Both the position numbers and the translations under genes were made by a program. A stretch of DNA of 64,000 nucleotides from an uncultured virus (IMG/VR IMGVR_UViG_3300047548_000908) (lineage: Duplodnaviria > Heunggongvirae > Uroviricota > Caudoviricetes): positions 62,001-126,000 of the IMG/VR virus record IMGVR_UViG_3300047548_000908; one strand, written 5' to 3'. Positions 4,247-40,393 of this stretch are shown here, piece by piece; position 1 is the first letter of the stretch, and each line of letters begins with the position of its first letter. The notes under the pieces are model-generated. The model had not been told where the DNA came from, made no database searches, and was given only the letters and a program-made list of their open reading frames with translations.

Positions 4247-4247
4247 T

Positions 4248-13644: not shown

Positions 13645-15711
13645 TTAGTCGATTGCTGCAAACCCATAACCTGCGGGACTTTCTATACCCATAGCCCTCA
13701 ACTTATTCCTAAATTGCATTCTTGCACCATCCATGTCGCCTGTTCTGGCATAAAATGCGGCTAGAATAGTTTCTGGATTATCAATTGAGTAGACTTTGTA
13801 TAAAGTGCTACCGGATGCTGAATCTGGTGCATATCTTTGGGCCGCTGGGTGTGATCTGCCTTCTTCCTCATATGGGCGAACAGGGGTAGCTTGTAGAGCA
13901 CTTTGAACCCCAGCCCATTCCGGATAGTTCCCCGGCATCACTGCTCTAGCAATAGCTGCTTCTTGACTGTCTGCAACAACTTCAATTCCGGCTGCACTGT
14001 TAGCAGGATTGGTCACACGCCACCAGTACTTTTTGCCATCAGTACCTGGTTTTTGCTTGGAAAAATACATAGACCTTACTTTAGCTAATTTTTCTCGGAA
14101 CTCTGATTTAGATATCTCACCGGTTACCGTCTTATAAAACAGCTCAACTAAGAGTTGGTATTGTACTTGTTTCACAGGAGGATCTACCGAAACTAATTGT
14201 CTTCTTCCTTTACCTGGAACGTCAAACATCTTTTTGGGACCCTTAGCATTTATCGGATCTTCTGGGTCATAATACTGAAATTCTGATGGTTTAAGTAGGT
14301 TATATAACTTTTTACCATATTCATTTTTATATTTGTCAGGGTCTGAGGCAATATCTAGTGCCACTACGAAACGAAGTAAAGTGTTCTTGAGTAACTTGAT
14401 ATCTGCATTAAGCCAATCACCACCTGGACTTCTAAACTCAACATACCCGTCTTTAACATTAATACTAGTATATTTGCTTGTTGCTCTGTTGTGAATAATA
14501 GCACTAGCTTTATATCCTAAATTAGTTCTCATTTGTTCAAAGGCAGTCTTGGCTTTGTCAGGTCTATTAACAATAACCTTTTTAATTATTTTCATAGCCG
14601 ATTCACAATATCGATTAGCTTCTCTGCCAAACTCTTCTAATACATATTCATCACCTAAAAATAATGCTAGTTTAACATAGTCTAGGTCTTTCGTTCCCTT
14701 TCCCTGAACACTAATATTCATGTGCAGTCCAGTGTGATAGTCATCACCAGTGTAGCATCCTTTACTTTTTGCCCATGCAATAACTTTATCTAGATCATCA
14801 AACATTTCATTTATAGGCAAAGGTGGGCTAATGAATTCTAAACCAGAATCGCTATCACTATCTCCTTCAAGGCTAGTATCCTTTTCAACTCTATAGTTAT
14901 CTGTTTGACTAAATTCACCTGAGTGATAGTCACCATAAGTAACAGGTCTTCCTATAATTTTTTCAAACTCTACTGCGACAGAACCCATACTTTGTCCGCT
15001 ACCCCCACTTTCTTCCATTGATGTATAATAAGGCCAGGTTATATCGTACTGATCTACAACATCGGTCATGTAGCGTATTCCTTGATCTGAAAGGAAATTA
15101 CTCTCGTCTAGGTTATTCTCATCGTGCCAGTTTTCTATGAATTGTTTTCTGGCATTTCGATAAACCCAGCCCTTTTCGTTATCCCATTCGTTATCTAGCC
15201 ATTCTTCTTTTTCTTCTGCTAGCTTTGCCATTATTAGATTTTCAATCTCTTCTTCGTCAGCATCATCACCCAATTTGTCTCTGATTCGTTCTTCTATATC
15301 TTCTCTTGTAGTTTCTTCATCGAATTGATCATCTGCCCAGTTATCAAAGAACTCTCTTCCCTCGTCACTTCTCCAAGCATCATCTGCTTTTTTGTTCATC
15401 CAATCATCAAATTGATCATTGAATGTAGATGCAAGACGATTGATCTCATCACGAGAATTATACCCTTCACCGCCCGAAAAAAAATTTAAAATTGAATCAA
15501 AATCAAGTGCTCGCTGATCGTAATCATAGTCTGGCTCTGGCACAAAATCATCGTCATCATATTCTTTAACCGATACATCAGGAACAATCATCTCAAATTC
15601 CATACCAGCTTTAGCAGAGATTGAAGCTGCCATTTTTTTAAGAGCAGAAGGTGACATATTCACCTCATTCAATAGCATCTCTGTTATTAATCCAAATTCT
15701 GTAAATCTCAT
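13645..15711 (-). CDS. putative amidoligase (COOH-NH2 ligase), paralog 1
   Basis: GMEFE, EKDTSL, GLEFISPP, TGLHMNIS, KYTSIN, VEFRSPGG. Confidence 0.8.
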   Translation of the reverse strand: MRFTEFGLITEMLLNEVNMSPSALKKMAASISAKAGMEFEMIVPDVSVKEYDDDDFVPEPDYDYDQRALDFDSILNFFSGGEGYNSRDEINRLASTFNDQFDDWMNKKADDAWRSDEGREFFDNWADDQFDEETTREDIEERIRDKLGDDADEEEIENLIMAKLAEEKEEWLDNEWDNEKGWVYRNARKQFIENWHDENNLDESNFLSDQGIRYMTDVVDQYDITWPYYTSMEESGGSGQSMGSVAVEFEKIIGRPVTYGDYHSGEFSQTDNYRVEKDTSLEGDSDSDSGLEFISPPLPINEMFDDLDKVIAWAKSKGCYTGDDYHTGLHMNISVQGKGTKDLDYVKLALFLGDEYVLEEFGREANRYCESAMKIIKKVIVNRPDKAKTAFEQMRTNLGYKASAIIHNRATSKYTSINVKDGYVEFRSPGGDWLNADIKLLKNTLLRFVVALDIASDPDKYKNEYGKKLYNLLKPSEFQYYDPEDPINAKGPKKMFDVPGKGRRQLVSVDPPVKQVQYQLLVELFYKTVTGEISKSEFREKLAKVRSMYFSKQKPGTDGKKYWWRVTNPANSAAGIEVVADSQEAAIARAVMPGNYPEWAGVQSALQATPVRPYEEEGRSHPAAQRYAPDSASGSTLYKVYSIDNPETILAAFYARTGDMDGARMQFRNKLRAMGIESPAGYGFAAID

Positions 15712-15729
15712 TTACTTTTCCCTAATTTA

Positions 15730-17691
15730 TTAATTTCGAACAGGTTCATACCCAAAATCATCAAGATTAGAATCCCATCCCCAAGTAGCCAATCTACTCT
15801 TAAACTGTCTTTGAGCGTCGCTTATGCTTGTCGTCCTAGCCACAAAAGTTCCTTGTGTTTCTTCAGGATCATCTACTGCAAATATTCTAAACCTAGTGTA
15901 TCCCTCGGGCACTGGAGCATCCTCATCTGGTTGTCTTGATGCAGGCGTGATCTCTGCCGGTTTAATAAACGCTTTAGCACCTTGCATCATTTCATGTGAT
16001 GGTAACACTCCCCATTCTTCTGCTGCTTTATTTAATGCGTCTTCCTTTGATTTAGCCAGTAATTCCATGCTAAAACGTCCGGTAGCATCGGTTACGATCC
16101 AAATAAGGTTAAATTTTGAATTCGGATCATACCCCCTCATTTTTTCAATGCTCCAAGACTGTCGAACTGCTTTAATTGCACTTCTAAATTGATCTTCTGT
16201 AATTTCATTGGCGGTAAACTTTGAAAACAAACTGACTAAGTACAGGTAGTCTTTTATATGTTTGTCGTCAACAACAGGTACTTGTTTTAAACCTTTACCT
16301 GGTGTACTTACGAACTTAGTAGGTTGCTTTAGATTAGCAGGATCTTCAGGGTCGTAATATTGAAATTCAGTAGGCTTAAGTAGATTGTATAATTTTTTAC
16401 CATATTCATTTTTATACTTGTCGGGATCTGAGGCAATATCTAATGCTACCACAAATCTACTGAGAGTATCTTTTAGTTTACCTATGTCTGCTTCTAACCA
16501 ATCACCACCTGGACTTCTAAACTCGACATATCCGCTTTTTACGTTAATGCTAGTATACTTACTAGTAGAGCGTTCATGTATTATAGCACTAGCTCTATAT
16601 CCTAAATTGACTTTCATTTTTGCTAGTGCCTCTTTGGCTCTATTTGGCTGAGTCATGATGATATTTTTGATTTTTTTCATAGCAGCTTCGCAGTAAATAC
16701 TTGCTTCCCTGCCAAACTCCTTCAGTATATATTCGTCACCCAAGAACAACGCTAGTTTAACGTAGTCTAGGTCTTGTGTTCCCTTCCCCTGAACACTAAT
16801 ATTCATGTGCAGTCCGGTGTTGTTTTTGTGACTAGTGTAGCATCCTTTATCTTTTGCCCAGGATATTACTTTTTCTAGATCATCAAACATTTCACTAATC
16901 GGCAATGGAGGACTAATGAACTCCAACCCAGTATCATTCGTGCTACTGGGTTCTAAACTACCATCTTTTTCAACTCTATAGTTATCTGTTTGAGAACGTT
17001 CTCCTGAATGATAGTCGCCATGAGTAACAGGTCTTCCTATAACCTGTTCAAACTCTGCTGCTACCGTCCCTATTCCATCGTTATTGGATATCCAATAAGG
17101 CCAAGTTATATTATAACTTCTCTCCACATCCGACATGTATCTATAATTTTCTCTCAACCAAATCCTTTGAAAATCTTCCCAATATTGGGATTGATAATCT
17201 TCAAGAAACTCATCATAAACGTTTTGATAGTTATGGTCTTGTTTTTTGATGGCTCGTTCAATCATGGAATCTATAGCCTCATCAACTGAATCAAATCCAG
17301 CGTCATTAGCCATTTCTTCAGTCATTTCCCCTTCAAAACGTTCTCTTAAAAGATCCTCTTTCTCTTCATTCCATTTTTCGTCCAGTTGCTCCATAAACCA
17401 ATCAGAATAATCAGTTACTAGGCTTTCGATGAGTAACTGGACATCTCTTCTTGAGTTATAATTTCCATCATCAAAAAAGTCTTCTATTTGAGAAAAGCTG
17501 GTAGCTCGTTCATCAGGATCGTAATCTTGTTCTAAATCGTCACCAGTGTCTTCAACATCAGGAACTATCATCTCAAATTCCATGCCTGCCATAGCATCAA
17601 TTGACTTGACCGCTTGTGCTAGAATGGTCGGCTTCATGCTTGCTTCGCCCAACGTCATCTCTGTCAATAATCCAAAATCTACAAATCTCAT
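15730..17691 (-). CDS. putative amidoligase, paralog 2
   Basis: GMEFE, EKDGSL, GLEFISPP, TGLHMNIS, KYTSIN, VEFRSPGG; closely similar to paralog 1. Confidence 0.8.
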   Translation of the reverse strand: MRFVDFGLLTEMTLGEASMKPTILAQAVKSIDAMAGMEFEMIVPDVEDTGDDLEQDYDPDERATSFSQIEDFFDDGNYNSRRDVQLLIESLVTDYSDWFMEQLDEKWNEEKEDLLRERFEGEMTEEMANDAGFDSVDEAIDSMIERAIKKQDHNYQNVYDEFLEDYQSQYWEDFQRIWLRENYRYMSDVERSYNITWPYWISNNDGIGTVAAEFEQVIGRPVTHGDYHSGERSQTDNYRVEKDGSLEPSSTNDTGLEFISPPLPISEMFDDLEKVISWAKDKGCYTSHKNNTGLHMNISVQGKGTQDLDYVKLALFLGDEYILKEFGREASIYCEAAMKKIKNIIMTQPNRAKEALAKMKVNLGYRASAIIHERSTSKYTSINVKSGYVEFRSPGGDWLEADIGKLKDTLSRFVVALDIASDPDKYKNEYGKKLYNLLKPTEFQYYDPEDPANLKQPTKFVSTPGKGLKQVPVVDDKHIKDYLYLVSLFSKFTANEITEDQFRSAIKAVRQSWSIEKMRGYDPNSKFNLIWIVTDATGRFSMELLAKSKEDALNKAAEEWGVLPSHEMMQGAKAFIKPAEITPASRQPDEDAPVPEGYTRFRIFAVDDPEETQGTFVARTTSISDAQRQFKSRLATWGWDSNLDDFGYEPVRN

Positions 17692-19295
17692 TTACTTGTC
17701 TCCGATGCGAACCATGGGTCAATGATTACTAGTGTACCATCTTTTCTTTGCATTACGTTCTCTGTATGTAAATCCCATCCTAGTTTATTTATACGTCCGG
17801 TGTGATATAACAATCTCATCATAGAGTACAATACTGCATACTCTTGAACTTCTTTTCTAGACAACATGCTTAGATCATGCAAAATTTCTCCATACATTAA
17901 TCCTGTCCAATGTTCCCATGTTTCCTCTTTTCTCACAGTCAGTAGTGCCTGTCTCCAAGTCATTCCATTAGAAGCACAGTCACTAAGAATCCAAACCATT
18001 GCCTCTTTAAAAGTATCCTCAGGAATTGGATGAAGTTTTTCCATTGCTATTTGAATGAACTGCCTACCATCTAACATAAAGGTAGTGTGATGTCTGCCTC
18101 CTATCGACACGAATTTTGGTAGGCAATCAAAATTATCAAACTTTTGACAAAACTCATAGAATTTATAAAAGGTTCTTGCCGCAAAAGTAATGTCGTCGCT
18201 ACTATCCGGCATTATAATCTTTATGACGGTAGATTCATCTTTAGTCCAAACGCTTGCATCAGCGCCTCGCCCTAACATAGTATATCCTGCATCCTGCAAT
18301 GTATCAACTATCTTTTGCTCTGGTGTATCGGATGCAACTTCAAGTATTTCTTCTTCGTCGTCAAGGTCACTTAAATCAACATAGTTAATGGGGACTCGTT
18401 TGAATACTGCTGCCAATGCACGATGATTTCCATCAACTATCCTGTTATTTGCTATTAAAATAATACTACTAGATAACCCAGGATTGTTCTCATAGTCTCT
18501 AACGATATCTATTTGCTCTGGCTTCATGATATCAAGAATTTCATCTTCGTGTTCTACACGATACTGATTTGTTATCAGTATCTTAAGCTTAAACGGGGAG
18601 ATTTGATTAACAGTAAGAGGTTTATCTAAATCACTTGGTCTAACATAATCCCAAAAGGCTTCATATTCATCAGGTAAATCACCGTGATATAAGTTATTGA
18701 GCGTAGTTTGATTAACTGATTCAGTTACCAATCCACGCTTGTCTCTCCAATCACTTGGATCTCTATCGTAGTTTATATTACTGAACGTAAGTACTGATCC
18801 TCCGTCCGATCTTTGATATGGTTTATTCTTAACCCAACCTGGATTCACTTCGTGCAGTGCTGCTAATATTCTATCCATGTATCTTATGTAAATGCTTGCT
18901 CGTCTTCCAAATGCAATCATTTTAACACTGCTTGTATCGTACTCTGAGACAAACGCAGGGAGTTCTTTTATAACTAGATTCATCCAAGTTCGAACTAATG
19001 GAGTTGCATCTTTGGCATACTCTGCATCGTCATACTTAGTGTATGAATCATCTACAGTAGCTAGCAATTCTACCTTACTGCCATATCTTTTGAATATCAC
19101 TTGTGAAGGAGGTAATCCAGGCTTTCTTATAACCTGCCAAGTTTTGCTACTTGGTTGTTGATCAACCAGTTTAGTATCAAGTTCAGCTAGCAACTTCTGT
19201 CGTGATCGCTGCGATTTTGAAAAGTGCCTTCCTTTTGTCATATTTTTTTCTGTTATCTTAATTTCTGCTAGGTTATCAGCGAGTTCATCTAACAT
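17688..19295 (-). CDS. multidomain protein: unknown + ParB/Srx-like + protein-kinase-like
   Basis: IVDGNHRALAA (ParB); LGRGADASVW, VIKI, MEKL, DLHTENVM, IIDP (kinase). Confidence 0.72.
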   Translation of the reverse strand: MLDELADNLAEIKITEKNMTKGRHFSKSQRSRQKLLAELDTKLVDQQPSSKTWQVIRKPGLPPSQVIFKRYGSKVELLATVDDSYTKYDDAEYAKDATPLVRTWMNLVIKELPAFVSEYDTSSVKMIAFGRRASIYIRYMDRILAALHEVNPGWVKNKPYQRSDGGSVLTFSNINYDRDPSDWRDKRGLVTESVNQTTLNNLYHGDLPDEYEAFWDYVRPSDLDKPLTVNQISPFKLKILITNQYRVEHEDEILDIMKPEQIDIVRDYENNPGLSSSIILIANNRIVDGNHRALAAVFKRVPINYVDLSDLDDEEEILEVASDTPEQKIVDTLQDAGYTMLGRGADASVWTKDESTVIKIIMPDSSDDITFAARTFYKFYEFCQKFDNFDCLPKFVSIGGRHHTTFMLDGRQFIQIAMEKLHPIPEDTFKEAMVWILSDCASNGMTWRQALLTVRKEETWEHWTGLMYGEILHDLSMLSRKEVQEYAVLYSMMRLLYHTGRINKLGWDLHTENVMQRKDGTLVIIDPWFASETSK

Positions 19296-21462
19296 CGGAA
19301 CTCACCACTGCATAATGCTTAGGGGCAATCATTTTTATTTTATACTCATCATCTCTAGTATCATTAGGCATAGATAAGAAGTACGTTTTTTTGCTACGAG
19401 GCCTTCCCCATGGCTTCATACTTACCCCATCGTCTTCTACATGAACTACATGCCCCATTTGCCCTGGTACTTTCCAATCGACACGGTTGCCTGAGGCAAG
19501 CAACTGTTTAACTGTTTGAATTATCTTACTTCTATCATCGTCGCCCCATGGCTCATTGTTTTTACTCTTAGGAGGCTTTGGCGGCTTTATGAATCCATCG
19601 TTGGCGAATTCTTTAATAGCCGATGAGGAAGATTGTTGTGTGTTTGCTCTTTTTTGTTGCTGTATTAAATTAACATACCAAGTATGCTCTGGTGTTCCTG
19701 GAGACAATGTAATCGTAGTGAATATCTGAACTCCTAGTTTGTTTTTTCTGTTAGATCCGTAAACCACTGGATAGAGTACATCCTTTTTTAACCCTCCCCA
19801 AATAGGCAGCTTTGCGTTAAACAATACAGCATTGACGGACTTACCAAACTTTTCTAAACCTGCTTTAGTAACGGTAGATGATACTTGAGAAATTTTATCG
19901 AACTCTTTACTTGTGATAGAGGTTGCAACATTATTTGGAGCTTTAACAATATTAGGATTATACTTATCAAAAAACAAGCTACGCCTCAGTAAATTATCAG
20001 AGGTACTCTTATAAGAAGTTCCATAGTACAACACCGCGTCAACTTTTATAGGTGATTGTTTTGCAGAAAGCATATCGGTTATTCCAGTAGTATTATTTGC
20101 CCCGCTAACTAAATTAGAAAGTTTTGTCAGATACTCCTTTCTATACATATTAGGGTCGTTTGCAATCACCATAGCCCGAACAAATCTGCCAACTGAATCT
20201 ATAACATCATTTAGGTTAGATAAGTAATCTCCACCAGCGTGCCTGAAACTTATCCATTTTCCATTATTGCTTATACTTGCTTTATGATTGTTAGATACGT
20301 TTAATGCAATATCTTGAAGTATTGCTATTCCGTTTTCATCAAAAACAGTTAGAGGGGTTTTGTTGGTTGTTATGCCTTGCTTTATTGAGGACATCACACC
20401 CTGAGCAAAATCATTCGCTGCTCTTCCCCATTTTTGCAAAACATATTGATCACCGGAGAACACTGCTAATTTAAGAACATCTAGTCCATTTGGTATACTG
20501 ATGTTAATGTGAATACCAGTAGAGCTATTTGTGTAAGCACCAGCTTGCTTTGCTATCTGATAGAACTTCTTCAAAGCATTTACAGCTTCAATTGCAGGTA
20601 AGGGTGGAGTAACTACTTCTGCTGCACCATCATTTGGATTGTTTGGTCTGACGGAAACGTCAGGTTCAATATACCATTGATCTGCTGTTTTTTCTTCCCC
20701 GTGATATGCTTTTAGTACCTTAACATTTTGAAAAGTTTTTGCAACTAACGGTTCTAGAATTGACGCAGCACCCATATAGTCATAACTAACTGGGTATATG
20801 TCATAACTATCTCCTCTTGGCATATAACCAAAAACTTCATGTTTAAGTTTGTAAAAGTTTAGTTTGGGATTCTGTACTAATTTTGCGATATCATCAGTGC
20901 CAAACACATCTTGGAAAAACGATGTATTAGCATAGGTTTCTATTCTGTTTACTTTTTCAGCTAGGTCTTTAAAATCTCCGTTTTCCTTATTTTCAAAAAA
21001 TGACTTAGTTACTCGCATGAAGTCAAACGTACTATTCTTATCGTATCTTCCACGCCTATCTCGCTCTATAGTTTGCTTCCACCTAGTCTTCACTGCGTTT
21101 TGTATTTCACTAGGAAGGCTATCAAGTAAAGGAATAAACATCTGTTGAGCAACTTGTTCATTGTATGCTTTGACCAAACTAGTAGAAGTCTTAACTGGCT
21201 TTCCATTAAAATTAAAAGGGGCTAGTAAGTCAAAAAGAAGATGAGGTCCATAGTACTTCCCCAGTAACTGCCAATCGGCTGGTACTTCTTTTATCCAATC
21301 AAGATCGTTTCCGCTTGTTTGTTTTATTTGTTTCCTAGGTACACAGACTTCGAATTCAAATCCCATCAAAACACCCTTTGCATTTGCCTGTTCAAGTGAT
21401 TGCCCAAATGCTTTAGGATTCATTGCAACTTCTGATACTGCACTAAACTCATTAAATCTCAT
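19285..21462 (-). CDS. putative amidoligase, divergent paralog 3, with C-terminal extra domains
   Basis: GFEFE, IEPDVS, AEVVTPP, STGIHINIS, ISFRHAGG. Confidence 0.75.
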   Translation of the reverse strand: MRFNEFSAVSEVAMNPKAFGQSLEQANAKGVLMGFEFEVCVPRKQIKQTSGNDLDWIKEVPADWQLLGKYYGPHLLFDLLAPFNFNGKPVKTSTSLVKAYNEQVAQQMFIPLLDSLPSEIQNAVKTRWKQTIERDRRGRYDKNSTFDFMRVTKSFFENKENGDFKDLAEKVNRIETYANTSFFQDVFGTDDIAKLVQNPKLNFYKLKHEVFGYMPRGDSYDIYPVSYDYMGAASILEPLVAKTFQNVKVLKAYHGEEKTADQWYIEPDVSVRPNNPNDGAAEVVTPPLPAIEAVNALKKFYQIAKQAGAYTNSSTGIHINISIPNGLDVLKLAVFSGDQYVLQKWGRAANDFAQGVMSSIKQGITTNKTPLTVFDENGIAILQDIALNVSNNHKASISNNGKWISFRHAGGDYLSNLNDVIDSVGRFVRAMVIANDPNMYRKEYLTKLSNLVSGANNTTGITDMLSAKQSPIKVDAVLYYGTSYKSTSDNLLRRSLFFDKYNPNIVKAPNNVATSITSKEFDKISQVSSTVTKAGLEKFGKSVNAVLFNAKLPIWGGLKKDVLYPVVYGSNRKNKLGVQIFTTITLSPGTPEHTWYVNLIQQQKRANTQQSSSSAIKEFANDGFIKPPKPPKSKNNEPWGDDDRSKIIQTVKQLLASGNRVDWKVPGQMGHVVHVEDDGVSMKPWGRPRSKKTYFLSMPNDTRDDEYKIKMIAPKHYAVVSSDVR

Positions 21463-22249: not shown

Positions 22250-22251
22250 GA

Positions 22252-23076: not shown

Positions 23077-23104
23077 AATTAGTATTTATCGTATGCGAAC
23101 ATTA

Positions 23105-24074: not shown

Positions 24075-24091
24075 TTTTCTTCCACAATAGA

Positions 24092-24927: not shown

Positions 24928-24937
24928 GATTAGATAT

Positions 24938-25519: not shown

Positions 25520-25525
25520 ATCAAC

Positions 25526-27196: not shown

Positions 27197-30100
27197 TCAA
27201 TGGAACATTAGATAACTGTCAATCACATCTTTGCGATTAGCAGCCCTGTCTCCTGCACCTGGTTGCACTATTACATTCCACTTTGGAACATTACTAGGTG
27301 GAATAGAAAGCATTTCATCATAAGATATAATCGTATTTACATCCACATCGTACTTATCTGCTAGACGCTGCTTAAATAAATCTAATGCTTCTTGGTTCTT
27401 GAATTGAGTCCTGCCTTGTTCATCTTTGATAAGCTTTGTTCCTTCCCTAGCGATCAAGTCAAAGAACATACTTTTAGGAACAGTGATTCCCTGTTTCACT
27501 ACATTACCTTGCTTCTTATGAAACTCAATCTTCTTAACTTCAGATGACTTTGATCCACTGCTAAAATTAATAATGAAGTTATCTGGTTTGTCGTCAGTGG
27601 CTACGTCTGCGATTTTAGTGTAAGCATAGAATTCAACCGCTGGATTCTTTTTTGCTACTTCGTATGCCATATTCAAGTATTCTTTACTGAAGAAGTCACC
27701 TGCATCGTGCCAACGAACTACCAACTTTATTCCTTTCTTATCCATCTTCTTTTTGATATCATGAATTTCTTGATTTACCATATTCATGTATCCTTCAGGA
27801 TCATTTACTAAAAAGTTTAAAGCTTGTGCTGCACTCATACTAGAATTAGGGAACATAATGTATCCTCCTTTTCTAGCGTAACAAAACAATTGACACTCGC
27901 CTGCTTTTGGACAAGTAGTTATTTCTACAAACTCACCGGTCTCTTCATCAATTACAAGCCCTTTCAATGCAGGGAGAGTTAGATCATATATGATCTCTCC
28001 TTCCTTCGCAGATTTCTTCATCTTGGCGTTTGTCCCTAGGATAGAAGATGGTCTCTTAGTAATCTTATTGGCCAAGTCTTCCAAATCCCACACATCTTCG
28101 CCGTCGTCGCTTTTTGTTATTTTTACATTACTTGCATGTATAATAGGGCCAGTCACTTTTTCTTTCTTTGACTTCGTTCCCTTCATAGTGCGATCAACGT
28201 AACCATAGATTTCTTCGTGCCCTAGTCTACGATGAGGTGCGTTAAGGCCGATTGCTTCATCGACAACCTTAGTGATTGGCTTTACCTGAAATCCGCCTAG
28301 TGTTTTTTCATTTAGCTTAGACTGTACCTCTCTATCTTTGGGTCGATTGCCAAGTTCACGATCTTTTGCTTCTTTATAATCAATGAAGTCTCTTCCTAGT
28401 TTTTTAGCTAAGATTTGCTCTTCGTCTAACGCAGCTTCAGATACTGACTTTGATGAACTTTTTTTCTTTTTTACGCAATTGTTTACTCTTACTCCACCTT
28501 TAATTTTAGTGCCAGATTTTCTGTACCCTTTCCAACATTTTGGATCTAGTCTTTGTTTAATCTTTTTTGCTTCTGCGACCTCACTCTCTTTTAGAGTGAG
28601 TCCCTCTGACATATTCGTCAAACTTTTCCTAACTGCTCTAGCAACGTCTTGAGCTAGCGCAGTCGGGTCACCTTCACCATAATTTAATACACTAGTGATT
28701 GCAGCTTGAATAACTCTATCACCTGCTTTTCTAGCTAAGTTGGGATAGGATTGTTCAAATGCTGTATAGATTTCGTCAGCACGGGTTTCGTCATCTTCAT
28801 TTACAAACTTTTTGCTTGTTCTAATTCCACCAAAGATACTACCTTTTCCTTTTGTTCTAGAATGAGTAACGCCAATTGGAAATGCCATTGGTGCAACGCT
28901 ACTTGCAGATGTCATTTCGGTTAACCATCCCAAGTCTCTATTACTATCCCATGCTCCGATTCTTATTCCATTTTCATTTAGAGCTTCATACTTCCCTGAT
29001 TTTACATGAGAAATCTTTCCCTCTAGTACTTTTACTGCCGACACCCAAACTTTTTGATCAGTAAATTTTTTCTTTGATTCTAGGAACGTACTGCTTCTCC
29101 CAAACTTTGGTGCTTGACTATCTGCGCCATATGGATTACTTGCAGGAGTGACTACGCTTTCTGTTTTTCTGCTAGCTTTCATTTCACTTAACCCCATGTT
29201 TTTCTTCGCAATATCCATTAGCTGTTTTATCCATTCTGAGTCAAGTTTCTTTGCACCAAAGTCTCCGCTGTTATACGCTTTTTGCCATGCTGCAAATTGT
29301 TGCTCAGGTGAAGCATTTGGGTCTTTTAGTATGTTTCTCAAATATGTCCCACTGACCCCTGTTCCTCCCTTTTCAGACTCTCTTGGAGTAACATAAGGCA
29401 TTGCTTTAACATGCTCGTATCCAGCAAACTTATTGACTGCTCTCATCAGAGACTTGCTCCAGTTAGCTGCCATACTCTCACGATCAGTACCAACTGTTAT
29501 GATAACATTATCAAATCTAGGAGGCTGACCGGGTCTAGGATTTATAAGTTCGTGTTTAATTTTTTGTAATAGGTTGCCACCCTCTTGAGTTACAGTTGAA
29601 ATATTGTTTGCATATTGAGGGTACAACTTTTGCCATGTTTGTACTTTGACGCTAGGTGGAATAGGATCATCTTTTCCTTCTGCTGGTCCAATGAACATGA
29701 AGGGTTCTCCACCGACTTCGTTTGCTTTGTCAATTGCATACTTAAACAGTTGTTGATGTCCAACATGACCTATTGCGCTACCTACTGCAACTACTGCTGT
29801 CTTGTTCGATCTTGGCCCAGAGGAAACTGGAGTAGCTTTCTTTGCAGCCATAATATCCTTCATTTCTTGGCTAGTTACCTTTAACACCATTCCACTAGGC
29901 ATGTTGATAACTAAACCTTCTATGACTTTGCCGAGTTGATCTTTTCCTTTGATAGCAGGGCTATTTATAATTGCATCTGATACTTGTTTCTTTGCAGACG
30001 ATAAGAATTTTCTAACCTGTTCCTTTTCTGGAGTCAATCCCTTTGTCTTTAACGTCGCAGTAATCTCGTTTTCATTTTCTAATACTTTATCAACTATAGG

Positions 30101-31906
30101 ACCTAACTGAACTCCCTTTTGTTTCAAAGCATTGTTCACTACTTTTATATTGGGACTGCTCAGTGAAAGTAACTTTTTCTTTATCTCCATTCCATCAGGT
30201 CTATCTTCACCTGTGCTGAATGATTTGATAAAGATAGGAACGAGGGTCATTACTTTTCCTAACTTCTTTGGATCGTATGTGATGTTAACAAACTTGTATC
30301 CGCCATCAGATTTCTGAGCCATTGCGTTGAACATCATCTCTGCTTGAACAATAGTATCGGATGGAAGACTTTTCACAAGATCGCTAGTTAGGATAATCTT
30401 CAATGCCTTGTCATAGTTCTTTGTGAATTCTAAACGCTCTGCATCTTGACCTACGCTGATTCCGTATTTTTCAAAATCACCATAGTTCTCAATATACTTA
30501 GGCTCTGTTACCCTCGAAGTCATGAAGAAAGGTTTTCCAGACTCATCTTTTCCAAAGCGAATTCCTGCACCATCTGCTTTTAAGTTAATTTGAACATTGT
30601 CTAATGTTCCACCATTCTCTGCGATTTCTTTGCAGAATGCAATAAAATCAAGGTCTTGTATTTCTGTACTTGAACCTGGATTGTATATATGCTGAACACC
30701 CTTTCTCTTAAAGTTCGGCTTAATTGTGGCCTCTCTTAAAGACTCAGTTGGAGTCATCTTATAGTTATCTTTGTATTGCTTTATCATAGGAAGCAAGTCG
30801 CTTGGTTTTTCTAGACCTAGCACTTCCATTGCCTTGTTGATAGCTACGGTCTTTTCTGTTATGTCACGATCGGGATCATTCTTGTAAATACCTTGTGCAC
30901 CAGGTCCTACTGTTTTTTCTAAAAATGTTCTAAAAACAGTCTCCTTTTCTTCCTGTGATAAAACAGAACTCATAATTTCAAGTAACCCAACAAAAGACCA
31001 AAGCTTATTAGAAACTTTCTTTAGACTTGCAGGAGACAATCTTTTTCCAAACAGACTTAAAAATATTTTGCCTACATTTTGTTCGTAGCCTGCCGCAGGT
31101 GCAGCAGACATAACTGGAAGACCATCTTTTACTAATGGCGTATTTCCATCCATAACTGGAACATATTTTATTCTTAATCCGCCCCCTTCTTTGGAGGAAA
31201 CTGCAAACGAAAACATATTGTCTACAGTGGGTACATCCTCTTCTTTTCTTTTCTTCCCTTTGCCTACCATTTTTCTCAAAAGAAATTCTCTTTTGGTTAA
31301 TGAGGCTAATGACTGAATTAAGAATTTATGGAAAACTCCTTTGATAGAGTTTTGCATATCGTCCCAAGAAGAAGAGTGAGAAAATCTTGACCATTCAGTA
31401 GGAAGACCTTGATCGAAAGATACAAACTCAAAATCGATTTGAATAGTTATCGGTAAATCTTCAAATCTCCAAAGACTTGAGTACTGTTCATTACCACGCT
31501 GATATCCAATGAATATAGCTGGTCCAACTTGTTTACCTTTAACGTCATTGAGGAATGCAGCGAGTGTGGTTTCTTTCTCTTTATCAACCATTGTGTCGAT
31601 ATCACCGACCTTTGGTTTTACTTTAGTAAAAGTCTCATCAGAGATATTCACATCATTAAAGAAGTGCAATGATGATCCACTTAGGAACGTTCTATTCTTT
31701 AGTAAGGTGGGTTCCCATAGATTTGAGCCTGCATGTTGTCTGTATGCTTTGTCGATGCTCAATAGCAAGGTATTCAAAAGGGGAACCATAAAGCTTCTTT
31801 TGTGAACTAGCAGATTGATTTGTTCAGCTTCATGTCCATCTAGTGATAGATTTCCTCCCTCCATTATAGGGGTGCGTATTCTAGTAGAAAGTTCAAATAT
31901 TTTCAT
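27197..31906 (-). CDS. 1569-aa multidomain protein: Pol-beta NTase-like, ATP-dependent ligase-like, HxGH nucleotidyltransferase, short modules, gp88-like Fe-S domain
   Basis: SGSS...GDID...QIDF; NLKADG, QAEM, IEGLV, LKV; GHVGH...VSGTYLR; CWKGY...NCV; TCPKAGECQLFCYA, RWHDAGDF, YAYTK. Confidence 0.7.
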   Translation of the reverse strand: MKIFELSTRIRTPIMEGGNLSLDGHEAEQINLLVHKRSFMVPLLNTLLLSIDKAYRQHAGSNLWEPTLLKNRTFLSGSSLHFFNDVNISDETFTKVKPKVGDIDTMVDKEKETTLAAFLNDVKGKQVGPAIFIGYQRGNEQYSSLWRFEDLPITIQIDFEFVSFDQGLPTEWSRFSHSSSWDDMQNSIKGVFHKFLIQSLASLTKREFLLRKMVGKGKKRKEEDVPTVDNMFSFAVSSKEGGGLRIKYVPVMDGNTPLVKDGLPVMSAAPAAGYEQNVGKIFLSLFGKRLSPASLKKVSNKLWSFVGLLEIMSSVLSQEEKETVFRTFLEKTVGPGAQGIYKNDPDRDITEKTVAINKAMEVLGLEKPSDLLPMIKQYKDNYKMTPTESLREATIKPNFKRKGVQHIYNPGSSTEIQDLDFIAFCKEIAENGGTLDNVQINLKADGAGIRFGKDESGKPFFMTSRVTEPKYIENYGDFEKYGISVGQDAERLEFTKNYDKALKIILTSDLVKSLPSDTIVQAEMMFNAMAQKSDGGYKFVNITYDPKKLGKVMTLVPIFIKSFSTGEDRPDGMEIKKKLLSLSSPNIKVVNNALKQKGVQLGPIVDKVLENENEITATLKTKGLTPEKEQVRKFLSSAKKQVSDAIINSPAIKGKDQLGKVIEGLVINMPSGMVLKVTSQEMKDIMAAKKATPVSSGPRSNKTAVVAVGSAIGHVGHQQLFKYAIDKANEVGGEPFMFIGPAEGKDDPIPPSVKVQTWQKLYPQYANNISTVTQEGGNLLQKIKHELINPRPGQPPRFDNVIITVGTDRESMAANWSKSLMRAVNKFAGYEHVKAMPYVTPRESEKGGTGVSGTYLRNILKDPNASPEQQFAAWQKAYNSGDFGAKKLDSEWIKQLMDIAKKNMGLSEMKASRKTESVVTPASNPYGADSQAPKFGRSSTFLESKKKFTDQKVWVSAVKVLEGKISHVKSGKYEALNENGIRIGAWDSNRDLGWLTEMTSASSVAPMAFPIGVTHSRTKGKGSIFGGIRTSKKFVNEDDETRADEIYTAFEQSYPNLARKAGDRVIQAAITSVLNYGEGDPTALAQDVARAVRKSLTNMSEGLTLKESEVAEAKKIKQRLDPKCWKGYRKSGTKIKGGVRVNNCVKKKKSSSKSVSEAALDEEQILAKKLGRDFIDYKEAKDRELGNRPKDREVQSKLNEKTLGGFQVKPITKVVDEAIGLNAPHRRLGHEEIYGYVDRTMKGTKSKKEKVTGPIIHASNVKITKSDDGEDVWDLEDLANKITKRPSSILGTNAKMKKSAKEGEIIYDLTLPALKGLVIDEETGEFVEITTCPKAGECQLFCYARKGGYIMFPNSSMSAAQALNFLVNDPEGYMNMVNQEIHDIKKKMDKKGIKLVVRWHDAGDFFSKEYLNMAYEVAKKNPAVEFYAYTKIADVATDDKPDNFIINFSSGSKSSEVKKIEFHKKQGNVVKQGITVPKSMFFDLIAREGTKLIKDEQGRTQFKNQEALDLFKQRLADKYDVDVNTIISYDEMLSIPPSNVPKWNVIVQPGAGDRAANRKDVIDSYLMFH

Positions 31907-31966: not shown

Positions 31967-34900
31967 TTACCTGCGTAACAAAGTTTTCATATCATACCAA
32001 TTAGTATGGAATGCATAATATTCTCCGTTAATTAGAATTTCATGACCTGACTGCAAGGCTCGGTGCATTTTATCATTTCTAAGCCCATGTCGATCTATTA
32101 GTTCTTTTACGTCAATCGAACTCCAATCAATTTTCACGTTTGAGTTAACCCATCTCCAAAGATCCAACAGTATTGCTTTGGAATACTTACTTATAAACAT
32201 GCCATCAGTTTTGCTATTCAAATGAGAACCAGTGATGTCTACGATACTGTTAATTCTAGGTTCTAGCCAATCTTTGTTACTAGAATCCATACGATTGCCA
32301 CTTTCTAAAAATTGATGTACTTCTTCAATGAACATAATAGCTTTCTTTTTTTCTTCATCGGAAATAGAAAGTGCGTTTGACTGAATGTCTCTCTTCAATA
32401 ACCTAAGACATCTAAGAATCATACTCTTTCTTGCAGGTAAAGGTACACCCTTTTCCCCGGTAAGGAATGAATCCAGCCCGGGGTATTGAGAAACAAATTC
32501 TTCATAAAAGTCTTTATATTTCTCGCTCCATGTAAAGGTGAATCCGTTCTTAGGAAAAATGTAATATACATTGTCCTTTCCGTATATTTCTGCAAACGAA
32601 AAGCTTGAAGTGCAGTACAAAGAATTACCACGTAACGCTGTAAAACCAGCCGATTTTAGTACAGTATCAACGACAGTTTGTATTTCGACAGGTGTATCCA
32701 TTGGCTTTTTTCTAGGCTTCGTGTAGTCCCAAAACGCAACAGGTATGTTTTTCTCTAGTGCTCCTTTTATTCCTCGATATAAAAAGGTGTCACTAGATCC
32801 AAGCATTTTCAAAAATTCACTGCATTCAGTTCGTATAAGTTCCGCTGGATCAACATCTTCGGGAATGGGAACTAAAGTCAATTTAGGAGCCTCATCCTCT
32901 TCTCTTAGCAGAGGGGGAACACCGTTCCTCTTAATCTTTGAACCTAACTTAGCTGCATTCTTCTGCATTGTGTCTGGTTTTATATCCACAGTCAGAGCAG
33001 TTTTAAATCTTGGATCGTTGGCTTCTTTTTTGCTTGGAATGTATCCTGACGCTGATTCATTAACACTACGAGGTATCAACAACTCGGGCATTCTATAGTC
33101 ATCTACATTAGCTTGGTCGTACGGCTTAAGAGACTTCTTATACTTCAATGCTGCTGCTTCTTTTTCTTCGTCAGTTTTTGCTCTGTAGAACTTATTAGCA
33201 AATACCATATCTCCCACTAATGTGCCAGGAACAATTTCTACCTTAGCTGGTTTATAGTATCGTAGTTTTTCTGGATCTTTACCTGTGAGGCTATAAAATG
33301 TTGATATCCATTTGTCAGGGTGTAGCGCAAAAGTATGAGTTTTTCTTTCTGGAACTAACTCTGCAAGTGGATCGTTACCTTTGAAAAACTTAGGTAATTT
33401 TTGTAAGTGTGTAGCTGTTTTTTCTTCATTAACTTGGCCTTCGTGTTCACCTCGGATTGCTCTGTCTACATAGTCACTTGATACTTCTTGTTCAAGGTCT
33501 ATTTGAACCCCTAATTTTTTTGCCAATTTAATAATTGCATTTCGTGCCGATTGGTCTTTGTAGATCGCAGAAAGACTTCTTTGCCCTTCATCATATTCAT
33601 CCCAGTCTTGCATTAATGGGATAACATTGGGTATCTTTTTTAGTTCATTGAAGAGGTGTTGTTGAAGTTCGGCATCCGTAGCATCGGGGAAGTTTGGATT
33701 AACACATACAAATTCTATTTCTTTGTAGCTTGTTTTACTTTCACTCAGTTGCTGATAGTCATGCGTCTCATATTCCACTAAGATGCTTTCTAATAAATCA
33801 GAAACTACTTTGATATTTGATGGAGGTATCCTAGAAGTGATTGCGATTTCATAGTCTGCTCCATCGATTGTTTTAACTGGTAGACCAAATGTACTGATTG
33901 CTAGCAATGCGAGTTCTTCATTTTCTTCTAGTTCGTCCCCTAGCCAATTCATTAATGCATCGTGTACTGAATCCTTATCCTTAAAGCAGTAGATTGCAGG
34001 AGTGTCTTCTCCTATTTTTTTCGATCTATCACCGATCTTAGGAATTAATCCCCTAGCCAAAATAGGATTCAGATTTTTCTTCAGAGTGACATGATAAACA
34101 GTTTTTGGAATACCAGTTGATTCTTCAAGATTGGCTTTGTTCAATTTAGTGTAATAGTTAGGATCTTCCTTAAGGTGATCCAATGCAATTTGCATAGCAA
34201 TCTTTTTGTCATAAGTATGCTCTAATTCTACTTGAATGCCTTTTTTTAATTGTGCTTTTATTTGCTGAACAGTTACTTTATGTCGTTTGGCAAGTTGATC
34301 AACAGACAAAGTTTTTTTGTTTAACGGTGATGATTCTGGTAAACTTAGTCGTATATCGTGTAGATCATTTTTTGTTTGATGTAGTTTATCAATGACACCT
34401 TGTGTTCTAAGCACTTTGAATGCAAGATTTTCAGGACCAAACTCACCGTGTTTGTCTAATCCAGCTTGGCGATATCTCTTTATAACTCTGAGTAGTTCAT
34501 CTATCTTCTTTTCATCTTTGGCTTTGATTGCAGCATCTGCGATATCTGCGAGCTTTTCATACTTTAACCTTGCTGCGGTTTCATCTACACCTGATCTTCT
34601 TTTCTTTGGTATGTGCAACCATTTATCATGCAAAACACTATACTCACCTAAACTAATTACAGGCTCAGCCGCATCCTGTACATATAATTCAACTTCGTAC
34701 CCTCGAATGAATATGTCATGATATTCGTTGTACAGATTCTTTTTCTCTTTGAATAGCTCTTTATAAATTTCATCATTGGAAAGTTTTGTCATATCCACTA
34801 GGATATGCAAATCGATGTCACTATGCTTAGTGTAGGAGTAAGCTGCATTTGATCCAGATATAGTTATATCTTCGATATCTAAATCAGAAATACCCAAATA

Positions 34901-35044
34901 TTCTATGAAGTCTTCAGCAATGAGTAACAGTCTATCTCTTACTTCTGCCCGTAGCTCTTCGTTTTTAAACAATGCAGGATTTAGCTCATCATGAAATTTG
35001 ATCGCATCATCAAGTCGAAATTTATCTAGTTCAGTTAGTTTCAT
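31967..35044 (-). CDS. 1025-aa multidomain protein: Pol-beta NTase, small helical domain, H-Y-E ART-like, unknown modules, R-S-E ART-like
   Basis: ISGSNA...SDIDLH; GIQVELEHT...IALDHL; YHVT...GLIP...AIYCF; LYRG...RGNSLYCTS...GHEILING. Confidence 0.68.
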   Translation of the reverse strand: MKLTELDKFRLDDAIKFHDELNPALFKNEELRAEVRDRLLLIAEDFIEYLGISDLDIEDITISGSNAAYSYTKHSDIDLHILVDMTKLSNDEIYKELFKEKKNLYNEYHDIFIRGYEVELYVQDAAEPVISLGEYSVLHDKWLHIPKKRRSGVDETAARLKYEKLADIADAAIKAKDEKKIDELLRVIKRYRQAGLDKHGEFGPENLAFKVLRTQGVIDKLHQTKNDLHDIRLSLPESSPLNKKTLSVDQLAKRHKVTVQQIKAQLKKGIQVELEHTYDKKIAMQIALDHLKEDPNYYTKLNKANLEESTGIPKTVYHVTLKKNLNPILARGLIPKIGDRSKKIGEDTPAIYCFKDKDSVHDALMNWLGDELEENEELALLAISTFGLPVKTIDGADYEIAITSRIPPSNIKVVSDLLESILVEYETHDYQQLSESKTSYKEIEFVCVNPNFPDATDAELQQHLFNELKKIPNVIPLMQDWDEYDEGQRSLSAIYKDQSARNAIIKLAKKLGVQIDLEQEVSSDYVDRAIRGEHEGQVNEEKTATHLQKLPKFFKGNDPLAELVPERKTHTFALHPDKWISTFYSLTGKDPEKLRYYKPAKVEIVPGTLVGDMVFANKFYRAKTDEEKEAAALKYKKSLKPYDQANVDDYRMPELLIPRSVNESASGYIPSKKEANDPRFKTALTVDIKPDTMQKNAAKLGSKIKRNGVPPLLREEDEAPKLTLVPIPEDVDPAELIRTECSEFLKMLGSSDTFLYRGIKGALEKNIPVAFWDYTKPRKKPMDTPVEIQTVVDTVLKSAGFTALRGNSLYCTSSFSFAEIYGKDNVYYIFPKNGFTFTWSEKYKDFYEEFVSQYPGLDSFLTGEKGVPLPARKSMILRCLRLLKRDIQSNALSISDEEKKKAIMFIEEVHQFLESGNRMDSSNKDWLEPRINSIVDITGSHLNSKTDGMFISKYSKAILLDLWRWVNSNVKIDWSSIDVKELIDRHGLRNDKMHRALQSGHEILINGEYYAFHTNWYDMKTLLRR

Positions 35045-35074
35045 TGTTCATACCATTTTATAGAATATTTATGC

Positions 35075-35105
35075 AAAAAAGGCTACTTGAGTTAAGTAGC
35101 CTTTT
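35075..35105. terminator. intrinsic terminator
   Basis: aaaaaaggctactt-gagtt-aagtagcctttt. Confidence 0.8.
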
Positions 35106-35123
35106 GAGTTAAGCGAGTAAGAA

Positions 35124-36017
35124 TTAAGACTTCTTAACTTTTGCGTTTTTGTGTGGTTTTTCTTCCTCTGCCGTATCAACAACTTGAACCTGAGCTTGAT
35201 TTTGATTTCGAAGTTCCTCTACATACATTGGACCTATTGTATTCATCAAGTGCTGTTGATTCTCCATACAGAAAGTATACGTTCCCGTATGTCGTAGAAG
35301 CACTCGCTTATCTACATAAATTTTGCCACCTAAATCACGCCAGTTTTCACAGAAGGTCCAATCTTCAGAATAATATCTCGCTTGACGAACTGCGGTATCG
35401 AAGTAAGTTTTTAAATACTTATCAAACTTTGGATCAAGTCCAATGTCATTCTTGTAAGGCTTTACCGCTGGATGCGCGTTTAGTTTGTCAAACACATGAC
35501 GTTTCATCAGTAAGAATCCAGTGCCTGCTTTACTAACTTCCTGCAACCCATCTGGTCCTTCTTCTGCTCCATCAAAGCCGTTTACTACCCAGCGAATGGG
35601 CATAGTTTTCATGGGATACAAACCACCAATTACATCTTTATCGTGATTTAGCAGAACCAGTAAATGCCAAGGTTCCCAGCCAATATCTGCATCGACAAAG
35701 AATAAATGAGTAGCATCGGTGTTATCTAAAAACTTTGCAGTCAATGTATTTCTGGCCCTGCTAATCAGAGACTCATTGGTCATCGTCTCCAAAGTCCAAT
35801 CAATTCCAAGTTGTCTTGCAGTGTTTGCCCACTTAATAAAACTCATGAAAGTAGATTCTGTAAGCATACCACCGTAACATGGCATTGCAATATGAACTCT
35901 AGTAGTTCTTAAATAATCAACGTTCACTTGTACTTGATTTTGTGGTTGAGCTTCTTGTTCAGGAGCAGCTTGAGTTGGTTCTACCTGAGTGGATTGTTCT
36001 TCGTTTGGTGTTGTCAT
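35124..36017 (-). CDS. GT-A fold glycosyltransferase-like protein
   Basis: IAMPCYGG, SLISRARN, FVDAD (DxD), GTGFLL, SEDWTFC. Confidence 0.8.
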   Translation of the reverse strand: MTTPNEEQSTQVEPTQAAPEQEAQPQNQVQVNVDYLRTTRVHIAMPCYGGMLTESTFMSFIKWANTARQLGIDWTLETMTNESLISRARNTLTAKFLDNTDATHLFFVDADIGWEPWHLLVLLNHDKDVIGGLYPMKTMPIRWVVNGFDGAEEGPDGLQEVSKAGTGFLLMKRHVFDKLNAHPAVKPYKNDIGLDPKFDKYLKTYFDTAVRQARYYSEDWTFCENWRDLGGKIYVDKRVLLRHTGTYTFCMENQQHLMNTIGPMYVEELRNQNQAQVQVVDTAEEEKPHKNAKVKKS

Positions 36018-36060
36018 AGTTTCCTCTAAGATTTATGATACTATTTAAGAGGAAACTATG
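36015..36060 (-). promoter_or_regulatory. RBS- and AUG-sequestering hairpin with a late promoter in the loop
   Basis: catagtttcctct (36015-36027) / agaggaaactatg (36048-36060); TAAATA at 36042-36047. Confidence 0.8.
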
Positions 36061-36075
36061 TGTGTGATTTTTTTC

Positions 36076-36423
36076 TTAGTAACTAATTTTGATACTGTGG
36101 ATTAAACCTGAAGTCATTCCCACCATTTTTGCTCTAACCCAAACATAATTGCCGTAAAGGTTAGCAAAACTGTTTTGTGTCAATGACGAACAGGGCAAGG
36201 TCATTATAGTGAACCAATCTGTGTCATTGGAAGATGGATCATCTGCCAGTGAAGCTTGAATCGTTATCAGCCCTGTTACGTTAGTTAAGTTCCAAGTAAT
36301 AGTTTGAAGATTGTTGCCACTTACATAATAAGAAGCGGCAGGTTGTTTAGTTCCTATATGATTGGGGTTATCCCCTTCATATGCAACCTGCGAAAATAAT
36401 GGGATTACAGTTGGCTGAGACAT
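36076..36423 (-). CDS. hypothetical beta-rich protein, possibly structural
   Basis: 115-aa ORF in a late-promoter unit. Confidence 0.65.
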   Translation of the reverse strand: MSQPTVIPLFSQVAYEGDNPNHIGTKQPAASYYVSGNNLQTITWNLTNVTGLITIQASLADDPSSNDTDWFTIMTLPCSSLTQNSFANLYGNYVWVRAKMVGMTSGLIHSIKISY

Positions 36424-39584: not shown

Positions 39585-40366
39585 TTTAAAGTTCCTTTAT
39601 TATAGGTGTTTATAGCATCAACAATACGCTGATCAATGATATCAGGCATAGTAGGTTTAATCAATACAAATTGGTCACCTACTTGATTTCTAGTGACAAT
39701 TCCTTCCTTTGGGATTCTAAGTAGGCTTCCAGGTTGAGTTTTGGGTTTTATATTAATCTCTAGCGTTTTACCAGATAACGTAGTAGTTCGGATCGAACCA
39801 CCAGTGATCAAATCTAGAACACTAACCTCTTCAGAGGTATAAAGATCCAATCCTTTCCTCTCAAATTTAGGATGAGGGAGAATTCTAAATTCTACCATCA
39901 AGGTTACATCTTTGATGAGATTGTTGAATCTATATTGCTGTCCGTTTTCTACTCCGTCGGGGACATCTATTTTGACCGTGTGCAATTGCCCATTAATGTT
40001 CAAGTTTAATATTCTTTGAGAACCAGAAGAGATTTCCTCTAGTGTAAGAGGTAGTACAGTCTTGCATATAACCTCTCTTCGTTGATGTTCTTTGTGTTGA
40101 CGTAAAATCTGATCGAACAGATTTTCCATGTTGCTTGTGCCAAAATTGAAGTTAAATCCTTCAGGAAAATTGTTCGTGTTCGGGGCGTCGTACCTTTGCC
40201 TCTTTGCAGGGTCGGAAAGTGTATCGTATGCTTCTTGAATTTGCTGGAACTTTGCAGTATCACCCCCTTTGTCGGGATGATGCTGACTGGCTAATTTTCT
40301 GTAAGCCTTTTTTAGTTCCTCGGATGATGCAGTTTTAGATACGCCTAGTATATTGTAATAATCCAT
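39581..40366 (-). CDS. DnaJ-class chaperone (CbpA-like, no zinc finger)
   Basis: [24 protein letters not shown]-terminal DnaJ domain. Confidence 0.9.
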
Positions 40367-40393
40367 ATATGATTCTAGCAATAAGTGCTAATA

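Follow-up and report, generated by a model that had tools for sequence, protein, structure and literature searches.

The capsid targeting sequence (CTS) of phage T4 comprises ten N-terminal residues; the protease gp21 cuts after L/I-X-Glu, and Alt is trimmed at both ends (PMC9026906). In the giant phages phiKZ, 201phi2-1 and SPN3US, ejection and inner-body proteins are cut by gp175/gp245 at S/A-X-E (PMC9026906, PMC5694885, PMC10052503). Polyvalent proteins have a domain repertoire that includes Pol-beta nucleotidyltransferase (NTase) and ADP-ribosyltransferase (ART) domains, and their delivery together with the DNA is predicted (Iyer et al. 2017, PMC5512222). Here, we analyze an open reading frame (ORF; P0001) of 1025 amino acids (aa) from an uncultured virus of the Caudoviricetes (IMG/VR IMGVR_UViG_3300047548_000908). 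The window, i.e. the whole stretch of 64,000 nucleotides that was analyzed, corresponds to bases 62001-126000 of the 137,127-base record (the contig), for which CheckV gives a completeness of 35%. Comparison with relatives suggests that the ORF is a modular chain made up of an NTase head, five swappable cassettes and a conserved module of about 55 residues, joined at seams that end in hydrophobic-x-Glu, and we lean towards reading the whole as a cargo polyprotein. The seam motif is that cut by gp21-type prohead proteases.

As Iyer et al. 2017 use the term, the ORF is probably a polyvalent protein. Homology breaks delimit seven modules, and a single polypeptide unites at least two unrelated domains of effector type (matches to NTase, DUF5661 and phrog_11975), and tail sheath, tail tube, neck and T4-type replication genes on the contig establish its phage origin. 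The joining of many unrelated effector domains in one phage polypeptide is the shared trait, and the ART-PolyVal domain (PF18760) is found in other members of the family, not in this ORF. What differs is the mode of release, for which built-in metallopeptidases are proposed in PMC5512222; the available passages of that paper hold no seam motif and no chassis of NTase head and 55-aa tail, and they name a prohead protease solely in the reference list. The likeness to T4 starts at the N-termini. T4 records give MKTYQEFIAE/A for IPII and IPIII, MKTFKEF... for IPI and MELITE/L for Alt (the slash follows the motif Glu), to be compared with the leader M-[KR]-x-x-E-F-[IV]-x-E/ of neighboring genes and with MKLTE/L at the start of the ORF. 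Predicted cuts after the Glu of hydrophobic-x-Glu are likewise shared, and relatives of the phage have a gp21-type protease and a gp23-type capsid protein. T4, however, removes only terminal propeptides of single-domain cargo, whereas the motif occurs here at six or more internal seams between unrelated modules and some 20 leader-bearing genes are found in 137 kb. The giant phages offer a parallel in that many head cargo proteins are processed after Glu by a gp21 homologue and that head proteins form paralogue families (PMC9026906, PMC5694885, PMC10052503). They differ in the P3 residue, which is S/A there and L/I/V here, and the cuts identified for SPN3US in the available passages all yield N-terminal propeptides, save for protease self-cleavage, none freeing several mature enzymes from one chain. 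RNA viruses and retroviruses likewise make one translation product that a viral protease divides at short linear motifs lying between functional units, but there is no evolutionary link; the units here are accessory cargo that varies between phages, and the protease would be the capsid maturation enzyme in the prohead. In the open literature (subscription journals being outside the scope), our search turned up no account of polyvalent proteins with a seam code for the prohead protease, nor any mention of DUF5661.

The initial annotation, made from the letters of the window alone, read the ORF as a polyprotein with [LIV]-x-E motifs at its domain boundaries and quoted six such sites. The frame is open throughout, and all six are present: SLPE/S (residues 234-238), NLEE/S (305-309), QLSE/S (432-436), QVNE/E (537-541), SVNE/S (660-664) and LLRE/E (712-716). 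Because the motif occurs about once per 49 residues, any border would have one close by chance, and the borders were therefore drawn from an independent source. Seam zones were taken as the limits of BLAST matches to relatives, set without reference to the motif (235-241, 308-316, 418-438, 537-543, 659-665 and 714-717; 55 residues in total). Eight of the 21 motif Glu residues in the ORF fall inside these zones, compared to 1.13 expected (binomial P = 7e-6), and each of the six zones contains at least one, so that the placement proposed in the initial annotation holds at every seam. The comparison with relatives supports the seams as true module borders. The modules and their surroundings are listed in Table 1.

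Table 1. Modules of the 1025-aa ORF and other features of the locus, in coordinates of the window.
Feature	Position	Strand	Observations
Whole ORF (P0001)	31967..35044	-	1025 aa, stop codon included in span; open for 1025 codons from the first possible start
N-terminus MKLTE	35030..35044	-	L-T-E at residues 3-5; resembles T4 Alt MELITE; fits contig-wide leader pattern; part of conserved domain
Module 1, residues 1-237	34334..35044	-	Probable Pol-beta-type nucleotidyltransferase head (GS...DID); ends LPE-237; phrog_36119 E 1e-42
Module 2, residues 238-308	34121..34333	-	DUF5661 small helical module; ends LEE-308; Pfam PF18905 E 8e-17
Module 3, residues 309-435	33740..34120	-	H..Y..E module; homology ends at 418-420; further sites LLE-419, LVE-424, LSE-435
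Module 4, residues 436-540	33425..33739	-	No family label; ends VNE-540; cassette in P0150 between VTE and VAE
Module 5 (unk2), residues 541-663	33056..33424	-	No family label; ends VNE-663; cassette in 5 relatives
Module 6, residues 664-715	32900..33055	-	Conserved ~55-aa module (SGYIP...DPRFKTALTVD...G-x-P); ends LRE-715; 137 copies in 151 family proteins
Module 7, residues 716-1025	31970..32899	-	Putative domain with near-invariant R757, S808, E1002; phrog_11975 E 9e-26
ATAAATA element	35066..35072	-	Starts 28 nucleotides before the ORF start codon; recurrent upstream element
Hairpin and T-run	35075..35105	-	Ends transcript of upstream gene; RNA fold -14.8 kcal/mol, z -5.3, 0/200 shuffles as good
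1569-aa multi-domain neighbor gene	27197..31906	-	Starts MKIFEL; several unrelated PHROGs and Pfam GP88; run of [LIVM]xE in Lys/Ser-rich stretch
Four stand-alone remote module 7 paralogs	21452-22249, 22252-23076, 23205-24074, 25526-26278	-	Leaders such as MRINEIITE/A; other leader genes between; cassette in P0116 behind IKE/A
Leader-bearing stand-alone genes (688, 653, 725 aa) and 535-aa gene	13645..21462	-	All recur as family cassettes; 26, 26, 25 and 6 family hits at E ≤ 1e-8

A full HMMER search returned 10,719 relatives of the ORF at E ≤ 0.001, 1,179 of them at E ≤ 1e-30. The family statistics given here rest on the best 150 of the 10,719 (301-2288 aa), that is, on 151 proteins with P0001, and a further 54 family ORFs from IMG/VR loci served as a replication set. 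When no motif was assumed, the last aligned residue was Glu at 32% of 848 homology-break ends, 4.5 times the background, and no other residue came near. An initial distance window around the break points gave weak contrasts (starts 16.9% vs 12.5%, ends 31.4% vs 15.2%); the full distance histogram revealed spikes at -2 for starts and 0 for ends, which were then scored against nine control motifs, [LIVM]x followed by D, K, Q, N, S, R, T, A or G. Of the 848 break ends, 201 (23.7%) fall on the Glu of an [LIVM]xE, compared to 0.5-3.5% for the controls, and the same is seen when the two core modules are excluded (91/451 or 20.2%, controls 0.2-4.9%). Individual cassettes follow the rule closely. The motif precedes the H-Y-E module in 11/11 relatives and DUF5661 in 10 of 12 foreign contexts, where a Glu is present in all 12; it stands before module 5 in 5/5 relatives and after it in 4/5. 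DUF5661 occupies other positions in relatives, and 22 of its 26 internal copies end in L-[ED]-E. In P0096, residues 225-720 have just five motif Glu residues, all at cassette borders; the SLT and LysM domains fall in a stretch of 233 residues, bounded by the motifs at 398 and 631, that has none.

The presence of the motif depends on a following module. This is best seen in the 55-residue module, whose copies are directly preceded by [LIVMF]xE in 126 of 137 cases and form the C-terminus in 78. A motif is found within 16 residues after 47 of 51 internal copies and after 0 of the 78 terminal tails (Fisher P 6e-31). Terminal copies end in ...GKI, ...GKF or ...LLRK, internal ones in ...GKIAE/, ...GKITE/ or ...LLRE/. 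The replication set behaves in the same way, with the motif upstream of 52/52 copies and downstream of 1/49 terminal and 3/3 internal ones. The other modules give single cases of the same kind: the stand-alone NTase of cyanophage S-CRM01 stops at ...LSL without Glu, just where fused forms go on with x-Glu, and the sole C-terminal copy of DUF5661 ends in ...AADL, short of the Glu pair. Such a dependence would not be expected of a motif that is part of a module's fold.

The family combines a constant frame with changing contents. The NTase domain (residues 1-235 in P0001) begins at residue 1 in 149 of the 150 best relatives, and the regions between and behind this head and the 55-residue module vary from protein to protein. 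Pfam cassettes in 59 members include DUF5661 (16), DUF6934 (10), ART-PolyVal (9), GNAT (8), ParB_N (3) and cytidine deaminase (2), with GGACT, NUDIX, M48 peptidase, HD and methyltransferase in a single member each; one family member carries SLT, LysM and two amidoligases. Comparison of orthologues at the junctions was the check proposed with the initial annotation, and it bears the prediction out. In five related records, the orthologous gene encodes 316, 362, 581, 680 or 806 aa (806 twice), where the two end modules stay constant, the cargo between them differs and the changes are placed exactly at the seams. The only one of the best 150 without an NTase head is the metagenomic P0150 (676 aa), which starts with MQVSEL and a HAD-like DMDGVLADF motif; as it carries modules 4 and 5 after this start, cassettes can ride behind another head domain.

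Cassettes of the family are also found as single genes, many of them with a short leader. M-[KR]-x-x-[ED]-[FILV] starts 20 of 180 contig ORFs, compared to 0.88 expected, and most of these continue to [IVL]-x-Glu at residues 7-9, as in MRINEIITE/A, MRAREFVTE/E and MKISEILSE/A. In a complete relative, the pattern starts 9 of 428 ORFs (1.4 expected). Fifteen of the 179 other ORFs of the contig match family cassettes at E ≤ 1e-8; 11 of them lie at 13.6-26.7 kb of the window, and 9 of these bear a leader. The initial annotation had proposed that the last domain of the ORF occurs both free with its own leader and as a cassette after an LxE site. Where cassette matches reach the N-terminus of a single gene, the leader end aligns with a seam: ...LLNE/VNMSPSAL of the 688-aa gene with ...ELLE/VKMSPGAL of P0096 (33% identity, E 2e-61), and ITE/AAA of the four genes at 21.4-26.3 kb with IKE/AAV. 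The homology of module 7 to these four genes, claimed at the same time, is confirmed as a remote one (12% identity; hhalign 96.7%, E 3e-10 over 112 columns). Seven closer stand-alone paralogs (24-33% identity) are encoded outside the window, at contig 14-24 kb, and their ...EILRE/DD leaders align with the ...PPLLRE/ED seam of the ORF. Among 44 metagenomic stand-alone homologues of module 7, 14 have the strict leader. Many of these homologues (P0165-P0208) show L-[KE]-P-G-[EQ]-K-K 6-20 residues past the start, whether a leader is present or not.

Assignment of the modules to known families succeeded in part. Module 1 is probably a Pol-beta-type NTase; its motif, G-S (64-65)...D-I-D (76-78), is invariant across the family, it has a weak profile match to MntA (E 0.09), and its score for Pfam NTP_transf_2 is 16.7 bits (E 0.0096), under the cut-off of 21 bits. 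In module 3, the H, Y and E columns are conserved. A Pfam search with it returned no hit at E ≤ 1 and a search for stand-alone relatives only seven family members. Two weak leads make it lean toward the H-Y-E ART clade (Tpt1/KptA- or Arr-like): the sole PDB matches of its family profile are Tpt1/KptA chains (E 0.004-0.18, covering the start of the lobe only), and its protein-language-model features are nearest to Arr-ms ART clusters (24/30, score 0.91). Family searches with module 4 gave no match. For module 7, the initial annotation suggested an R-S-E ART-like domain. Across 46 sequences, the R, S and E columns vary little or not at all, and this pattern is what speaks for the label. Sequence methods found no ART match: hhalign against T4 Alt showed no similarity (probability 0.1%), two PDB profile searches matched no ART chain, Pfam on the 46 members gave no ART family, and language-model features pointed only to unnamed viral clusters. 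An ART-like mechanism for module 7 is conceivable.

The source of the ORF is a T4-related jumbo myovirus, whose contig encodes a gp43-type DNA polymerase, clamp loader, tail sheath, tail tube and neck proteins. Sheath identity is 42-44% with Agrobacterium phage Atu_ph07 and Pseudomonas phage PA5oct and 56-61% with five uncultured records of 171-525 kb. A Logan contig spans the ORF in one piece with 0 differences, being a second assembly of the same freshwater sample and thus not independent. The locus had no megablast match among isolated phages, and a pattern scan of 185,579 species genomes found no relative; related loci were recovered with an alignment as query, while a single-protein query gave none.

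A protease of the required type is found in the relatives. Peptidase_S77 (PF03420) is present in four of the five related records (those with 56-61% sheath identity) and in all three complete ones, and the protein is 36% identical to T4 gp21 across conserved blocks, its gene adjoining one for a gp23-type capsid protein. On this ground, the phage of the window would be expected to encode such a protease as well. The scaffold-like protein of one relative has 26 [LIV]xE, compared to 11.2 expected. In the capsid protein of the same relative, four of five motifs lie in the first 43 residues, the last being ...LLAE/SS at the place of the T4 ...FLTE/AE cut, and L-[AS]-E at this propeptide site is kept in four relatives. 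This is the substrate pattern expected if the protease of the lineage has T4-like specificity. Phage-encoded ClpB-like, DnaJ-like, ClpX-like, ClpP-like and Hsp20 proteins were also noted (window 37308-40381, minus strand; contig 34343-36313 and 39715-40308, outside the window). The ClpP-like gene is labelled "head maturation protease" by PHROGs, yet lies near the ClpX-like gene.

Upstream of the ORF, the transcript of the preceding gene would end at a hairpin with a T-run that a simple terminator scan did not flag, and an ATAAATA element follows. This element, which we take to resemble the T4 late promoter without its first T, occurs within 45 nucleotides upstream of 24 of 153 contig ORFs, compared to 1.24 expected, and the contig has 57 copies of it, counting both strands. 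The exact octamer TATAAATA shows no enrichment (3 vs 5.8 expected). Genes preceded by ATAAATA include those for tail tube, neck adaptor and a virion structural protein, and further instances are found upstream of 57527-58153 and 62938-63702. In other contigs, it precedes 71 of 79 family genes (about 1% expected). Late expression of the ORF can at most be called likely: ClpX-like and DnaJ-like genes have ATAAATA in front of them too, and it is not seen immediately before head genes of the relatives (1/7 starts in one head cluster, 0/3 further capsid genes).

The account that we favor, with somewhat better than even confidence, is that the ORF encodes an enzyme kit that is loaded into the head, cut by a protease and injected. 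The chain would be made alongside the virion genes and enter the prohead core, where the head protease would cut exposed seams. The pieces would then leave with the DNA and act on the host as a nucleotidyltransferase, one or two ADP-ribosyltransferase-like enzymes and the unlabelled modules. The virion-type cargo of the family, ART-PolyVal in 9 of 59 members and SLT with LysM in one, is consistent with such a route. The polyprotein interpretation passes every comparative test that we ran and is in part supported by them, and the observation extends to a very large family.

Several observations weigh against this account, beside the ambiguous upstream element. The initial annotation had itself named motifs inside folded domains at background frequency as evidence to the contrary, and the overall count in the ORF is at background (21 [LIV]xE vs 19.1 expected from composition), whereas the placement at seams is non-random. 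The other 13 sites sit inside modules and would need protection by folding. About three quarters of the homology-break peaks have no coinciding motif, and we assume that these are mostly imprecise BLAST ends. The strict [LIVMF]xE is found at the NTase seam in only 93 of 150 relatives, with S/T-x-E in 52. Polarity of the flanks, a weak proxy for linkers, is only slightly raised at seam motifs (61% polar/small residues vs 54% for other motifs, P 9e-25). No tblastn match to the 55-aa module was obtained among isolated phages. Peptidase_S77 was not found on the contig, a result of little weight given 35% completeness and a control search that matched nowhere. Finally, the N-terminus of the ORF lies within the homology of a folded domain and does not have the second Glu of the neighbors' leader. 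The initial annotation had one leader deliver many domains; the start MKLTE/L is leader-like, but homology begins at residue 1 and MKLTEL is integral to the conserved NTase domain, with Glu5 kept in 120 of 151 family members, which makes the role of a leader doubtful.

Among other explanations, the most serious, though clearly less probable than the favored one, is that of an uncut polyvalent multi-enzyme that works as one chain, the seams being passive remains of leaders or a favored linker. Uncut transfer is described for the polyvalent proteins N4 vRNAP, ArdC and TraC1 in the available passages of PMC5512222, the background count of the motif agrees with it, and some seams look like leader remnants, such as ...ELLE/VKMSP beside ...LLNE/VNMSP. 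Many seams are minimal, however, and reuse the last hydrophobic residue of the module (GKI-stop to GKIAE/, LLRK-stop to LLRE/), which passive leader remains do not predict, and the absence of the motif from 78/78 terminal tails speaks against the uncut reading too. In single genes, moreover, the same motif ends a leader resembling the T4 CTS, which T4 cuts, and a retained exposed site would still be a substrate.

A cytoplasmic enzyme array that stays unpackaged, with leader-like N-termini serving e.g. translation or localization, would accommodate the ATAAATA element, which is not confined to structural genes, as well as an N-terminus that belongs to the NTase domain. It appears improbable in view of the close match of the leader to the T4 capsid targeting sequence in pattern and terminal I/V-x-Glu, of a family cargo that includes cell-wall-cutting SLT with LysM and ART-PolyVal, typical of virion-delivered proteins (PMC5512222, available passages), and of a Glu seam code that has no evident use in the cytoplasm. 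Slightly less probable still is cutting of the seams by another protease, be it a peptidase cassette of the family, phage ClpXP or a host enzyme after injection. Some family members do have HExxH or M48 peptidase cassettes, autoproteolysis by metallopeptidase domains of polyvalent proteins is proposed by Iyer et al. in the parts available (PMC5512222), and the contig encodes ClpX-like and ClpP-like proteins; but Pfam scans detected no peptidase module in the ORF and a peptidase in only 1 of 59 scanned members, and the motif fits gp21-type specificity, as do the motif patterns in the scaffold and capsid propeptide of relatives.

Other genes around the ORF show related features. The 1569-aa neighbor (Table 1) is probably a second cargo polyprotein, of another family. 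Leader genes are densely clustered at window 13645-26697 (minus strand): two paralogues of 650-690 aa, four ART-like paralogues, two small genes and an amidoligase. Among them lie GGACT, ferritin/Dps-like and alpha/beta-hydrolase-like genes that have no leader; the GGACT gene recurs as a cassette behind QLDE/ in P0013. PADLOC on seven proteins of the cluster gave no hit. A row of QueE-like, QueD-like, GTP cyclohydrolase and QueC/NAD-synthetase-like genes at window 2055-4904 (minus strand) suggests 7-deazaguanine modification of the phage DNA. In the relatives G001, G002, G004 and G005, there are open frames of 5440-5894 aa (e.g. G001:C1 near 127342), with weak secondary matches to tail sheath.

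In conclusion, the ORF belongs to a family in which modules are exchanged at hydrophobic-x-Glu seams and shared with leader-bearing single genes. One tentative extension of the favored account is that a general plug-and-play grammar of loading operates in T4-related jumbo phages of freshwater and the sea, by which any module placed behind hydrophobic-x-Glu, after a leader or inside the chassis of NTase head and 55-residue tail, enters the prohead and is freed by the maturation protease, such that one gene delivers a changeable set of counter-defence enzymes. Loading may require both chassis ends in cis, and this would account for the insertion of cargo between the two. If this grammar is true, it would constitute a protein-level cassette system of >10,000 members, of which we found no description in searchable papers. 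If the seams are cut, the idea of polyvalent effector proteins and the capsid targeting and gp21 processing of T4 would join into one mechanism for loading and releasing many enzymes from one gene. The border rule would then make it possible to read the mature products of thousands of unannotated metagenomic proteins, and, following the example of the T4 CTS, it could guide how cargo is designed for protein delivery by phages. It would also open a route to new injected counter-defence enzymes, as most cassettes here have no known family.

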